A stretch of DNA of 23,959 bases from IMG/VR virus record IMGVR_UViG_2648501400_000002, positions 1 through 23,959 of that record. One strand, 5' to 3'. Made by a program: the position numbers and the translations under genes. The stretch comes from a virus (Duplodnaviria > Heunggongvirae > Uroviricota > Caudoviricetes). The notes beneath the pieces are model-generated. The model made no database searches. It was not told the origin of the DNA and worked only from the letters and a program-made list of their open reading frames with translations. This document shows, piece after piece, positions 8,287 through 11,087 of the stretch (the first letter of the stretch is position 1; each line of letters begins with the position of its first letter).

Positions 8287-9045
8287 ATGAGTTGTAAGCC
8301 AATGTTATCATCTTGTATTGGGGTGGTTATGAAGGATGGTGCGCTGCTCAGGAGTTCTTCACTTTTTATTGCCTACATGGGATGCCTTGGATGGGGGAGT
8401 GCTTATTTCTATGGATGGGGTACTTCTTTTTACTACGGCTTCCCATGGTGGATTGTAGGTGCAGGTGTTGATGATGTTGCCAGAAGTTTATTTTTTGCAG
8501 TTATCGTCATTGCTATATTTCTTATCGGTTGGGGTATTGGTGTTGTATTCTTTTTCGCAGTGAAAAGAAAACATTCTATGCAAGAGCTAAATGTATTTCG
8601 CCTTTATTTTGCTGTGGAATTATTGTTTGTGCCGGCAATTATTGAGTTTTCTATATTGAGACAGAAGATTCAGGTACCTCTTTTGCTACTGTCAGCAGCG
8701 ATTGCGCTGGCGGTTACAATTTCGATAAGATCTTATGGGCGATTTTTATCGGTATCATGCTTCTATGATAAGCCATTTATAAAAAAACATTTTTTTGAGA
8801 TTGTGATGATTGCTTTTGTGGCATATTTCTGGCTTTTTTCATTTCTGACAGGATATTACAAACCGCAGTTTAAGAAAGAATATGAAATGATTAATTATAA
8901 TGATGGTTGGTATTATGTTCTTGCTCGTTATGATAATTGTCTGGTTTTGTCTACTTCTTTCAATGCAGGTAGTAAAAGGTTTGTCATTTATCAATCAGCA
9001 CAAGATAAGAATCTTCAGGTTGATATTGTAAGGACCAGAATTTAA
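8287..9045 (+). CDS. Hypothetical polytopic membrane protein (~5 predicted hydrophobic helices plus a C-terminal soluble tail) in the Q-S moron slot
   Basis: 252-aa ORF in AT-rich DNA, absent from lambda at this position. Hydrophobic helices such as LFFAVIVIAIFLIGWGIGVVFFFAV. Start uncertain: 8287, or 8329 after a GGGGTGG-like site. Confidence 0.65.
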   Translation: MSCKPMLSSCIGVVMKDGALLRSSSLFIAYMGCLGWGSAYFYGWGTSFYYGFPWWIVGAGVDDVARSLFFAVIVIAIFLIGWGIGVVFFFAVKRKHSMQELNVFRLYFAVELLFVPAIIEFSILRQKIQVPLLLLSAAIALAVTISIRSYGRFLSVSCFYDKPFIKKHFFEIVMIAFVAYFWLFSFLTGYYKPQFKKEYEMINYNDGWYYVLARYDNCLVLSTSFNAGSKRFVIYQSAQDKNLQVDIVRTRI

Positions 9046-9178
9046 TTGGCTGCATAAATAATATTTTAAGTTGCAAGTTGGCTATTCGTAGGAATAGAAC
9101 CTTAGGCATGCTGAATGCGTTTTCTGAACATTGTTTTATAAACTGTGTCTGCTTGCTGTTGTGATCCTGCTTTTAGTG

Positions 9179-9289
9179 ATGGTGATGATGGATTTCACCA
9201 GCAGGATAATGTTGGTACTGACTGATGGCGCTCTGGTCTGCGGCATTGTGGTATTGCTGTGGCCGATGATGAAAAAACAGAATGAATAA
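9179..9289 (+). CDS. Candidate small hydrophobic peptide (36 aa) MVMMDFTSRIMLVLTDGALVCGIVVLLWPMMKKQNE
   Basis: Short ORF below the track cutoff, read by hand. One predicted membrane helix with a basic C-terminus. No convincing ribosome-binding site. Confidence 0.3.
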   Translation: MVMMDFTSRIMLVLTDGALVCGIVVLLWPMMKKQNE

Positions 9290-9424
9290 TCCTTGACTTT
9301 TTTGTTTACTGTTTATTAAAAAATCAACCGCATGGTGAATCCTCCTTGGAGGGGCTAAATGATCGAGTTTTAAGGGCACGTAGCGAGTTCTGTTTGATCA
9401 TTGCAGAACTTAGCGGGAGGCGCC

Positions 9425-9541
9425 ATGCGTACATCACTAATGTTATTTCCTTCTATCATTTTCCTTGTGAGTTCTGGCTGCGCATGGCGCGGCCTTTTTT
9501 TTATGACCTGCCACTGGCAGATGGTCATCCTGTGATTTGAT
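9425..9541 (+). CDS. Candidate small lipoprotein-like peptide (38 aa) MRTSLMLFPSIIFLVSSGCAWRGLFFMTCHWQMVIL
   Basis: GGGAGG 5 nt upstream of the ATG at 9425. Signal-like hydrophobic N-terminus ending in a lipobox-like VSSGC. A weak CCGG-TT-CCGG plus T-run follows. Confidence 0.35.
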
Positions 9542-9682
9542 TCCGGTTCCGGCTTTTTAACACTGTTCCTGTACACGGGAGAAATTCTATGTCGATTAAT
9601 CGTTATGATATTGGTTACAAGAAGTACCACGTATTGTGTTGAGATAGAAAGCCTGGTGCCAGAGGTAAATGCAGCAGCATAA

Positions 9683-9731
9683 TAAAAAAGAGCCAGCGCA
9701 GAAGAGAACGGGTAAAAGAGTCTGCGCTGGC
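9683..9731 (-). terminator. Putative minus-strand intrinsic terminator
   Basis: 11-bp GC-rich inverted repeat GCCAGCGCAGA / TCTGCGCTGGC (9692-9702 and 9721-9731), followed on the minus strand by TCTTTTTT. The 18-nt loop is larger than typical. Confidence 0.45.
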
Positions 9732-9910
9732 GTGGGGATATTCCCCGTGGAGAAATGATATGTAACACACATCGGGAACCTTTCTATATAAACATTATCA
9801 TTATTGTCAATCATAACAGTCAGGTATTATGACGTTTATGCATCAGGGCCATCAGGAATTAACTGGTGGCTTTTTATTGTTGTCAGCTTCCGGATAACGG
9901 GAGACGGGGT

Positions 9911-10126
9911 ATGTACCAGATGGAAAAAATCACAACAGGTGTGTCATACACCACGTCAGCGGTGGGGACGGGATACTGGCTACTGCAGTTGCTGGACAAA
10001 GTCTCCCCATCCCAGTGGGTGGCAATAGGCGTATTGGGTAGCCTGGTGTTTGGCTTGCTGACGTATCTGACAAACCTTTATTTCAAGATTAAAGAAGATA
10101 AGCGTAAGGCTGCGAGAGGTGAATAA
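9911..10126 (+). CDS. S: Class II holin (phage-21 S-type pinholin) with dual-start motif
   Basis: ...[40 protein letters not shown] matches recalled S21. Two in-frame starts, ATG 9911 (MYQMEK...) and ATG 9920 (MEK...), as in the antiholin/holin pair. Confidence 0.9.
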
Positions 10127-10623
10127 TGTCGCCATCATTACGCAAGGCTGTTGCTGCTGCTATTGGTGGTGGGGCTGTTGCCATAGCGTCTGTGCTCATC
10201 ACTGGTCCGAGTGGTGACGATGGCCTGGAAGGTGTCAGCTACATACCATACGAAGATATCGTTGGCGTATGGACTGTATGTCACGGACACACCGGAAAAG
10301 ACATCATTCCCGGTAAAACGTATACCGAAGCAGAATGCAAAGCCCTCCTGAATAAAGACCTTGCCATGGTCGCCAGACAAATTAACCCGTACATCAAAGT
10401 CGATATACCGGAAACAACGCGCGGCGCTCTTTACTCGTTCGTTTACAACGTGGGCGCTGGTAATTTCAGAACATCGACGCTTCTTCGCAAAATAAACCAG
10501 GGTGATATCAAAGGCGCATGTGACCAGCTACGTCGCTGGACATACGCTGGCGGTAAGCAATGGAAAGGGCTGATGACCCGTCGTGATATTGAGCGTGAAG
10601 TCTGTTTGTGGGGGCAGCAATGA
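10126..10623 (+). CDS. R: SAR endolysin (lysozyme, phage-21 R-type)
   Basis: 165-aa product [59 protein letters not shown]... matches recalled R21, including the Gly/Ala-rich N-terminal signal-anchor-release segment. Confidence 0.95.
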
Positions 10624-11087
10624 GCAGGGTAACCGCGATTATCTCCGCTCTGGTTATTTGCATCATCCTCTGCCTGTCATGGGCTGTTAATCATTACCGT
10701 GATAACGCCATCGCCTACAAAGAGCAGCGTGATAAAAAAGTCAGTGAGCTGAAGCAGGCGACTGCCACCATTACTGACATGCAGCAACGCCAGCGTGCTG
10801 CTGATGTACTCGATGCTAAATACACGAAGGAGTTGGCTGATGCGAAAGCTGAAAATGATGCTCTTCGGCGCAAGCTTGATAATGGTGGTCGGGTGCTCGT
10901 CGAAGGAAAATGCTCTGTGCCATCCTCAGCCGAAACCTCCAGCGCCTCCGGCATGGGCAATGATGCCACCGTCGAACTCTCTCCAGTTGCTGGACGAAAC
11001 GTTCTCGGTATCCGGGACGGAATTATCCGTGACCAAACAGCACTGAGAACGCTTCAGGAGTACATCAGGACGCAATGCCTGAAATAA
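10620..11087 (+). CDS. Rz: Rz (i-spanin)
   Basis: [40 protein letters not shown]... matches recalled lambda Rz. ATGA overlap with the R stop. Confidence 0.9.
10840..11046 (+). CDS. Rz1: Rz1 (o-spanin lipoprotein) embedded in the +1 frame of Rz
   Basis: [23 protein letters not shown]...[14 protein letters not shown] has the lipobox VVGC and a proline-rich core like lambda Rz1, and is nested within Rz. Confidence 0.8.

Follow-up and report, generated by a model that had tools for sequence, protein, structure and literature searches.

What occupies the 865 bp between a membrane-protein gene and the holin gene S in the viral record IMGVR_UViG_2648501400_000002 (IMG/VR; Caudoviricetes), of which the stretch from position 1 to 23,959 is referred to here as the window? 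An earlier note, made from the letters of the window alone, had described this interval (9046–9910) as devoid of any long credible open reading frame (ORF) and as containing two short peptide ORFs and a minus-strand terminator, and had compared it with type I toxin–antitoxin or lysis-timing modules. The interval is the accessory "moron" slot in the late operon of a lambdoid prophage of the Sp3/PP4 type. It very likely contains, in this order, a DUF3927 gene, the small RNA (sRNA) PasD1/EcOnc13, the deletion scar of a nanS-p esterase gene, and the sRNA EcOnc32, which converges on PasD1. The evidence for expression consists of published data on identical sequences in other strains, namely enteropathogenic Escherichia coli (EPEC) E2348/69 and enterohaemorrhagic E. 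coli (EHEC) Sakai.

EcOnc32 on the minus strand

The minus-strand terminator proposed at 9683–9731 was found exactly at these coordinates, with an 11-bp stem (9692–9702/9721–9731), an 18-nt loop and a tail, CUCUUUUUUA, that runs to 9683. A simple terminator scan overlooked it because the loop length was capped at 8 nt. The 93-nt RNA ending there has a folding energy of −34.9 kcal/mol (z = −6.7), and none of 200 shuffled sequences was as stable. It consists of stem-loop 1 (9773–9757), the single-stranded seed AUCAUUUCUCCAC (9759–9747), stem-loop 2 (9746–9734), and the terminator (9731–9692) followed by the U tract to 9683, with the 3′ end at 9683/9684.

An sRNA of about 100 nt reaching down to 9683 had been predicted on the minus strand, and this RNA turned out to be EcOnc32. 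In EPEC, the chimeras obtained by sequencing of ligated interacting RNAs (RIL-seq) end at position 1060613 of NC_011601, which corresponds to 9683 of the window. In EHEC, EcOnc32 was reported at Sakai 901574–901662 (minus strand) within prophage Sp3, with a predicted terminator (Tree et al., 2014; PMC4104026, Table S2). The RNA of the window corresponds to Sakai 901579–901672 and is identical in sequence, and the published EcOnc32 Northern probe matches 9738–9772 exactly. EcOnc32 ranks with the strongest orphan Hfq sites, and its Northern band has about 112 nt. It was recovered in all five datasets of cross-linking and analysis of cDNA (CRAC) with a signal of 64.7 million, which among the rows of Table S2 examined is surpassed only by AgvB1 (77.8 million), and these rows give no homologue for EcOnc32.

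The EPEC tables count the reads of EcOnc32 under the coding sequence (CDS) "E2348C_1013" (Pearl Mizrahi et al., 2021; PMC8550237); judged by sequence identity, EcOnc32 is the RNA tabulated under this name. In the same study, RNA sequencing (RNA-seq) gave E2348C_1013 a baseMean of 2064, compared with 5–6 for Q and the holin gene S, and the RNA decreased 7.5-fold (log2 −2.91; adjusted p = 1e-23) in an hfq deletion mutant. In the RIL-seq data it always is the second RNA of the chimera, with a U6 tract, eight partners and reads ending at 1060613. Its "other fragments" amount to approximately 808,000 of the 18.2 million Hfq fragments (~4%), whereas ArcZ reaches 146,000 and PasD1 24,000, which places EcOnc32 with the most abundant RNAs bound by Hfq. 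It is not among the new EPEC sRNAs of that study because it failed the authors' criterion 4, with only 50% of its partners being CDS or 5′ untranslated regions (5′UTRs). RNA-seq shows that the lysogen expresses both PasD1 and EcOnc32, although the late genes on either side are silent (PMC8550237). In a literature search of main texts, neither EcOnc32 nor E2348C_1013 was named in any paper.

The database annotation under which these reads were counted, a 132-aa hypothetical protein on the minus strand, raises the possibility that the Hfq signal derives from the mRNA of a real protein instead of an sRNA. The ORF is intact, hundreds of genomes carry its annotation, and it was the RIL-seq authors themselves who assigned the reads to it. 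However, the reads accumulate at the 3′ terminator of an RNA of about 100 nt at the 5′ end of the ORF (1060613–1060672 in EPEC; an 89-nt CRAC peak in Sakai), and the Northern band has a size of ~112 nt instead of at least 400 nt. The terminator at 9683–9731 lies inside the ORF, which in addition is antisense to PasD1, contains EcOnc32, and crosses the junction of the esterase deletion described below, so that it cannot predate this deletion. Its counterpart in prophage PP2 of E2348/69 is frameshifted, and no Pfam or PHROG family matches its product. A genuine protein thus is extremely improbable, the ORF is regarded as spurious, and the earlier statement that the interval lacks a long credible ORF holds.

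Two overlapping sequences were retained as candidate sigma-70 promoters of EcOnc32, P1 from a scan and P2 from reading by eye (Table 1). P2 contains the TTGACA that had been noted on the minus strand and is the positional counterpart of the promoter of the sRNA Esr41. Both are kept in the EcOnc32-type variants V1–V3 of other prophages, where the −10 element is GATAAT, TATCAT or TATAAT in P1 and TATAGA or TATAAA in P2. The predicted length of EcOnc32 is about 105 nt from P1, which fits the Northern band, and about 94 nt from P2, and the candidate 5′ ends are located at ~9776 (94 nt) or ~9787–9794 (105–112 nt). We infer that PasD1 and EcOnc32 have a promoter each. The EcOnc32 gene of the window type, promoter included, was detected in 603 of 5,426 complete E. 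coli genomes (about 11%), and the carriers include O157:H7, O26, O103, O111 and EPEC O127.

Kinship of EcOnc32 with Esr41

A covariance-model search of the RNA region, as suggested in the earlier note, was carried out with Rfam. The permissive scan gave matches to Esr41 and STnc100, both below the gathering thresholds, and at these thresholds the whole window yielded no match. The Esr41 model (RF02676) aligned over its full length with 9682–9771 on the minus strand (32.3 bits, E = 1.1e-3). In the reverse direction, a model based on window-type variants only (R1) found canonical Esr41 (locus L006, 2499–2572) as its best non-self match with 30.8 bits (E = 4.7e-5 in 43 kb). Stem-loop 1, a single-stranded seed, stem-loop 2 and a terminator with U tail are present in the minimum-energy fold of Esr41 and in that of each of five variants, and 48 of the 72 Esr41 positions are invariant across these six sequences. 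Stem-loop 1 was misaligned by MAFFT, and the helices were compared by eye and from the individual folds. Paired changes seen by eye preserve the helices and replace G-C by A-U and C-G by U-A in stem-loop 1, and A-U by G-C and C-G by U-A in the terminator.

Like EcOnc32, Esr41 (EcOnc14) has a 5′ hairpin, a U-rich/CUCCA seed, a GGGG...CCC hairpin, a GCC(A/G)GC terminator and a U7 tail. The two RNAs share the seed core UUUCUCCA, and a TTGACA promoter is found at the matching position. They differ in the flanks of the seed, which reads AUAUCAUUUCUCCAC in EcOnc32 and AUCACAUUUUCUCCAU in Esr41, and in length, as Esr41 has 74 nt and EcOnc32 94–112 nt with its 18-nt terminator loop and 11-bp stem. The iron-related targets of Esr41, which it represses, are chuA, cirA and bfr, and that of EcOnc32 is entC. 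Esr41 is an Hfq-dependent sRNA that resides near iha in the EHEC island SpLE1 (O-island 43/48), whereas EcOnc32 has its place between PasD1 and the holin gene, in a lambdoid prophage's late region, and O157 strains carry both. From these comparisons EcOnc32 is called a putative paralogue of Esr41 rather than Esr41 itself.

Pairing of EcOnc32 with entC

In the EPEC RIL-seq data, the strongest specific partner of EcOnc32 is the 5′UTR of entC, with 263 chimeras in three of three libraries (p = 4e-165; PMC8550237). Hybrids of ECs0632 (entC) with EcOnc32 are also listed in an EHEC dataset obtained with RNase E by cross-linking, ligation and sequencing of hybrids (CLASH; Waters et al., PMC5286369). 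The seed 5′-AUAUCAUUUCUCCAC of EcOnc32 pairs with 5′-UGUGGAGGAUGAUAU of entC and thereby covers the Shine-Dalgarno sequence and the AUG. A CLASH hybrid read joins this site, the entC ribosome-binding site (RBS), to the EcOnc32 segment ATATCATTTCTCCACGGGGAAT.

Energies were calculated for seed-restricted duplexes and compared with shuffled sequences, full-length duplex prediction having given meaningless long duplexes. The duplex of the EcOnc32 seed with entC has −18.2 kcal/mol, and none of 500 shuffles was as good; for the seed of Esr41 on the same target the value was −11.5 kcal/mol, reached by 51 of 500 shuffles. The Shine-Dalgarno region of dnaK (GUGGAGA) fits the EcOnc32 seed as well (9 of 500 shuffles as good). 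The interaction between EcOnc32 and entC is established by the two independent ligation datasets together with the energy calculation. That EcOnc32 also represses entC is moderately likely, by analogy with the repression of iron-uptake mRNAs by Esr41.

In the proposed mechanism, PasD1 and EcOnc32 would both be made in the lysogen, end in an intrinsic terminator and U tail of their own, be bound by Hfq and act in trans on host mRNAs. PasD1 would act via its seed UGUGAG, and EcOnc32 would use the single-stranded AUAUCAUUUCUCCAC between its first two hairpins against UGUGGAGGAUGAUAU of entC, where pairing presumably blocks translation of this first gene of enterobactin synthesis.

As a separate observation, the 18-nt loop of the EcOnc32 terminator (9692–9731), CUCUUUUACCCGUUCUCU, is complementary to GAGAACGGAG in the rpoS leader and to AGAGACGGGAAAA in the nleB pseudogene, both of which are RIL-seq partners. 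These pairings are marginal (37 and 98 of 500 shuffles as good, respectively). The loop could be a second seed, a reading that was not adopted.

PasD1/EcOnc13 on the plus strand

The second sRNA of the slot is PasD1, a Northern-validated RNA of 173 nt located at NC_011601 1060260–1060432 on the plus strand (Pearl Mizrahi et al., 2021; PMC8550237, Table S6) and one of the abundant Hfq-bound RNAs in EPEC RIL-seq (PMC8550237). By alignment, the published interval maps to 9330–9502 of the window, all 173 nt being identical in E2348/69, and the published Northern probe matches 9463–9486 exactly. Its EHEC name is EcOnc13, with a size of ~187 nt (Tree et al., 2014, PMC4104026; PMC8550237), and the EcOnc13 peak of Sakai falls inside 9330–9502. 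The EcOnc13 Northern probe, as parsed from the supplementary PDF of PMC4104026, had no match in the window within three mismatches, possibly due to a parsing or row-shift artefact. The placement of EcOnc13 on PasD1 rests on its coordinates and on the statement of Pearl Mizrahi et al. (PMC8550237).

In the permissive Rfam scan, STnc100 (RF02076) aligned over its full length with PasD1 (37.7 bits, E = 4.3e-6); a structural kinship of PasD1 and STnc100 has already been published. The hallmarks of PasD/STnc100 RNAs are present, namely a 5′ helix in which C(A/G)CCAUGC closes GCAUGGUG, a hairpin that follows immediately, and an intrinsic terminator with U tract. In detail, the 5′ end GCAUGGUG (9330–9337) pairs over a long range with the arm CGCCAUGC (9421–9428), and the other parts are the 5′ hairpin (9341–9352), a conserved GGGAGG (9415–9420), the seed UGUGAG (9466–9471), which a published motif analysis located just 5′ of the terminator (PMC8550237), and the terminator itself (9476–9502). 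This plus-strand terminator, placed at 9476–9504 by the scan, is a strong one, with an 8-bp stem, seven G-C pairs and a tract of eight T, and had been overlooked in the earlier note. Compared with Rfam STnc100, the 5′ hairpin is shorter in the RNA of the window, from which the CCGGGAGGCACCCGG hairpin is missing. Changes in the 5′ helix are one-sided only (U-A to U-G, C-G to U-G), with no double compensatory change among six sequences. MAFFT combined with RNAalifold on six PasD/STnc100 alleles misaligned the CACCAUGC region and gave no compensatory pairs, and thus is uninformative on the structure of PasD1.

Upstream of PasD1, a promoter-like sequence at 9293–9322 was read by eye and was not flagged by a consensus promoter scan. 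On the basis of its sequence it could be a weak candidate promoter of PasD1, with processing from an upstream mRNA as the alternative.

PasD1 of prophage PP4 in E2348/69 shares with the RNA of the window its full sequence, the UGUGAG seed and the terminator. In both, PasD1 is situated downstream of the DUF3927 gene and directly adjoins the holin operon without an esterase gene. PasD2 is a relative of PasD1, and PasD2 and the corresponding sequence of phage 434 differ from PasD1 at four positions, one of them a 1-nt deletion.

In front of one and the same esterase scar and EcOnc32 gene, at least three PasD/STnc100 alleles were observed that differ in body, in seed and even in terminator (loci L015, L036, L037, L045, L002 and L027 in IMG/VR and phage Evi). 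The variety of these alleles suggests that recombination shuffles sRNA cassettes between prophages.

Peptides and the toxin–antitoxin comparison

Two short peptides had been proposed in the slot. The 36-aa hydrophobic ORF at 9179–9289 was placed exactly and belongs to a real family, but it represents only the C-terminal part of a 52-aa DUF3927 protein with a TTG start at 9131. The 52-aa product matches PF13064 with 54.2 bits (cut-off 25) over profile positions 7–49 of 53, and phrog_1470 with E = 1e-17, and the gene is annotated at the coordinates of 9131–9289 both in RefSeq and in the phage 434 record. Since the hydrophobic segment at the N-terminus, which lies upstream of ATG 9179, is retained in diverged homologues, the 52-aa form is the likelier product. 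A literature search on TciB/DUF3927 returned unrelated papers only.

The second peptide, a lipoprotein-like ORF, does start with the ATG at 9425, and a GGGAGG is present 4 nt before it at 9415–9420. The ORF stops at 9535, however, and thus has 36 aa instead of the 38 aa that had been assigned to 9425–9541. Its product has no Pfam or PHROG match and does not contain the lipobox [LVI][ASTVI][GAS]C, as the cysteine is preceded by S-S-G, with none of L, V and I at position −3. The ORF lies inside PasD1, whose terminator at 9476–9504 is located within it, so that the PasD1 RNA ends within the ORF, and its frame is not conserved. A 1-nt indel in PasD2/434 joins different frames, and because of this indel the ORF of the earlier note, a 64-aa frame-1 ORF of the window and a 62-aa protein of phage 434 have no common frame. 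In STnc100-type alleles the ORF is absent, whereas GGGAGG and CAUGC are kept with a spacing of 11 nt and followed by unrelated sequence. The ORF thus is not considered a gene, and the small ORFs within PasD1 are judged to be by-products of RNA motifs. The CCTCC-TT-GGAGG hairpin that, according to the earlier note, could sequester an RBS exists, but at 9341–9352 rather than 9338–9349, and forms the 5′ stem-loop of PasD1 rather than an RBS-masking device. A 2-nt loop is impossible; in agreement with the Rfam alignment of STnc100, the hairpin is CCUC[CUUG]GAGG or CUCCU[UGG]AGGGG.

PasD1 might nevertheless be a dual-function RNA, in which the GGGAGG-ATG at 9415–9427 would direct translation of a short peptide, membrane-bound or lipoprotein-like, if only on late transcripts or on those reading through the terminator. 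The strong Shine-Dalgarno-like GGGAGG 4 nt before the ATG, the signal-peptide-like N-terminus of the product and the 62-aa membrane protein annotated here in phage 434 are in line with this idea. Moreover, ribosome profiling of strain EDL933 gave a coverage of 2.16 for STnc100_1 at 902843, which is presumed from its coordinates to be the same locus; yet the non-coding sRNA CyaR has the same value in that table. With its terminator at 9476–9504, the sRNA itself contains no stop codon, and the ATG at 9425 is part of the conserved helix arm whose pairing partner is the RNA's 5′ end. Between PasD1 and PasD2/434 no reading frame is common to the three peptides that have been annotated or proposed, the STnc100-type alleles preserve GGGAGG and CAUGC as RNA motifs with other spacing, and the peptide belongs to no matched family. 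A coding function of PasD1 is therefore considered quite improbable.

The comparison with type I toxin–antitoxin or lysis-timing modules would have the DUF3927 peptide or the lipoprotein-like peptide held in check by a neighbouring sRNA. The resemblance to hok/sok, ldr/rdl, tisB/istR and ibs/sib, in which a gene for a small hydrophobic peptide is found near small RNAs, is evident: the 52-aa peptide has two hydrophobic segments and is encoded less than 400 nt from two abundant sRNAs and directly upstream of the holin gene. In contrast to those systems, neither sRNA overlaps the DUF3927 mRNA by coordinates, PasD1 and the peptide gene are encoded on one strand, and duplex energies of the sRNAs against 9046–9300 were within the range of shuffled sequences (53, 161 and 100 of 300 shuffles). 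Since there is neither overlap with nor significant complementarity to the DUF3927 mRNA, the defining feature of a type I system is absent. Both sRNAs have many trans partners among host genes, the lipoprotein-like ORF is not conserved, and in other prophages an intact 1.85-kb esterase gene separates the two sRNA slots. These findings contradict the proposed module and make it very improbable.

A different kind of influence on lysis is conceivable for EcOnc32. Its transcription opposes that of the Q-antiterminated late transcript 135–230 nt upstream of the holin gene, and the RNA is fully complementary to the transcript reading through from pR′, which would permit a cis-antisense effect on late mRNA. 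After induction, EcOnc32 and its promoter might thus also act in cis and delay or dampen the lysis genes by transcriptional interference or antisense-guided cleavage. We consider this unlikely; if true, it would partly vindicate the lysis-timing guess of the earlier note.

The esterase scar and the sRNA cassettes of the slot

Between the two sRNA genes lies the remnant of a nanS-p sialate O-acetylesterase gene. According to blastn comparisons with the intact genes of phage 434 and PP2, the first 25 nt (9589–9613) and the last 72 nt (9614–9682; esterase nt 1780–1851 including the stop codon) have been kept, and nt 26–1779 (1,754 bp) are missing at the junction 9613|9614. An identical scar is present in most related prophage contigs of IMG/VR, and variant V3 has an intact 616-aa esterase beside the same minus-strand RNA. 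Because other prophages hold the intact 1.85-kb gene between the two sRNA slots, the closeness of PasD1 and EcOnc32 is secondary and an accident of the deletion.

PasD has been reported upstream of the esterase and PasA/PasC downstream of it, with frequent Esr41 matches near PasD (Zhu et al.). PasA and PasC (EcOnc51/52) occupy the same slot as EcOnc32, from the 3′ end of the esterase to the holin gene, are likewise oriented along the minus strand, and share with it the esterase-proximal terminator arm GCCAGCG...CGCUGGC. Their bodies and seeds are unrelated to EcOnc32, and their 13–18 bits with the EcOnc32 model come from the terminator. Depending on the prophage, this slot was observed to contain minus-strand cassettes of PasA, PasC or the EcOnc32-type V1–V3, namely at L004 2967–3220 (E2348/69 PP2), L005 2832–2930 (PP5), L032, L040, L057 and L030 (IMG/VR) and 9683–9823 of the window. 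In PP2 and phage 434, a second minus-strand terminator beside the esterase (L004 2967–3052 and L001 5394–5479) resembles that of the window. It corresponds to the 3′ end of the "minor" PasA form of 236 nt.

Convergent sRNA pairs at prophage moron sites have been described for AsxR and AgvB with EcOnc27-type partners (Tree et al., 2014; PMC4104026). As in the present case, these are Hfq-binding sRNAs expressed from a repressed prophage (PMC4104026). However, AsxR and AgvB are anti-sRNAs of 51–60 nt that sponge host sRNAs, and there is no evidence of sponging for EcOnc32.

Genomic setting

The moron slot lies between the region of Q and the late promoter pR′ and the lysis cassette (Table 1). Complete E. 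coli genomes by the hundreds contain its 865 bp, at 99.5–99.9% identity. The counterpart in PP4 of EPEC E2348/69 is NC_011601 1059976–1060840 (99.8–99.9% identity), and Sp3 of O157:H7 Sakai is 99.4% identical to the region, with five mismatches, none of them inside either sRNA.

Table 1. Coordinates of the features in and around the moron slot of the window
Feature	Position	Strand	Evidence and remarks
Antiterminator Q gene	7426–8049		Pfam PF03589
252-aa membrane-protein gene	8287–9045	+	Multi-pass; phrog_1521 match
DUF3927 ("TciB-like") small membrane protein, 52 aa	9131–9289	+	TTG start; Pfam, PHROG, RefSeq
PasD1 promoter-like sequence	9293–9322	+	TTGACT 9293–9298, 17–18 nt spacer, TTAAAA/TAAAAA; read by eye
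PasD1/EcOnc13 sRNA, 173 nt, Hfq-dependent, STnc100-like	9330–9502	+	Published coordinates, identity, probe, Rfam
132-aa hypothetical protein (ECs_0817/E2348C_1013/E2348C_RS28255), judged spurious	9370–9768	−	Database annotation
Lipoprotein-like ORF, 36 aa, judged not a gene	9425–9535	+	Inside PasD1
nanS-p (SASA family) sialate O-acetylesterase deletion scar	9589–9682	+	blastn against phage 434 and E2348/69 PP2
EcOnc32, Esr41-like Hfq-bound sRNA	9683–9794	−	Fold, Rfam, RIL-seq, CRAC, Northern, CLASH
Candidate sigma-70 promoter P2	9810–9783	−	TTGACA 9810–9805, 16 nt, TATAGA 9788–9783; read by eye
Candidate sigma-70 promoter P1	9823–9794	−	CTGACT 9823–9818, 18 nt, GATAAT 9799–9794; scan
Terminator-like hairpin and T tract	9846–9879	+	Scan match 9845–9873, 11 pairs; just upstream of the holin RBS
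S21-type class II holin S	9911–10126	+	PF04971, 112 bits; RefSeq annotation; module boundary

The 252-aa membrane-protein gene on the upstream side has no Pfam family match. In EPEC RNA-seq its baseMean is 147 in the repressed prophage, compared with ~5 for Q and S (PMC8550237), and it may be a moron expressed in the lysogen. On the other side, the holin gene has a dual start, MYQM, with ATG codons at 9911 and at 9920. The terminator-like hairpin in front of it corresponds to a terminator annotated at the matching place in the phage 434 record, and its sequence is kept upstream of S in Stx/Stx2 phages that otherwise differ upstream. In the lysogen, this hairpin probably protects S against transcription coming from the moron, and Q-modified polymerase would read through it. 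Two other readings of the slot were discarded: as the untranslated leader of the S21 holin, since only ~70 nt upstream of S are common to other S21-type phages, and as a tRNA or other structured RNA, for which there was no Rfam match.

Weighing of the assignments

Several observations weigh against the assignments made here. The Esr41 score of EcOnc32 (32.3 bits) is far below the gathering threshold of 102, which is itself close to the self-score of near-identical seed sequences, and the STnc100 score of PasD1 (37.7) does not attain the threshold of 47. As blastn of 8000–10700 against the canonical Esr41 locus found no similarity, homology with Esr41 rests on ~67% invariant positions over 72 nt and the shared structure. 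The Northern size of ~112 nt exceeds the 94 nt predicted from the TTGACA promoter; 5′ end and promoter of EcOnc32 are candidates only. In the seed-restricted calculations with shuffles, pairing with the rpoS leader and nleB was weak or not significant. A change in entC expression would follow by analogy with Esr41. Finally, all evidence for expression is carried over to the window from identical sequences in other strains.

All elements of the slot had been detected before, and none of them amounts to a new kind of system; the earlier note had correctly detected known elements. Its prediction of an sRNA has held up, its coding and toxin–antitoxin readings have not. The additions made here are modest: the identification of EcOnc32 with the "E2348C_1013" RNA, its placement as a putative paralogue of Esr41, and its pairing with the entC RBS. 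The kinship with Esr41 and the entC pairing are discussed in none of the paper texts searched.

Implications for prophage and host

A seemingly empty region, which the databases fill with a 132-aa hypothetical protein, thus holds two highly expressed regulatory RNAs. One of them, EcOnc32, is a widespread prophage sRNA that two independent ligation datasets link to the RBS of entC. If its proposed action is true, EcOnc32 would rewire siderophore production of the host and represent a prophage-borne paralogue of Esr41 with a target range of its own. If enterobactin synthesis is indeed repressed, iron control would gain through EcOnc32 a second layer encoded by prophages, next to Esr41 and AsxR.

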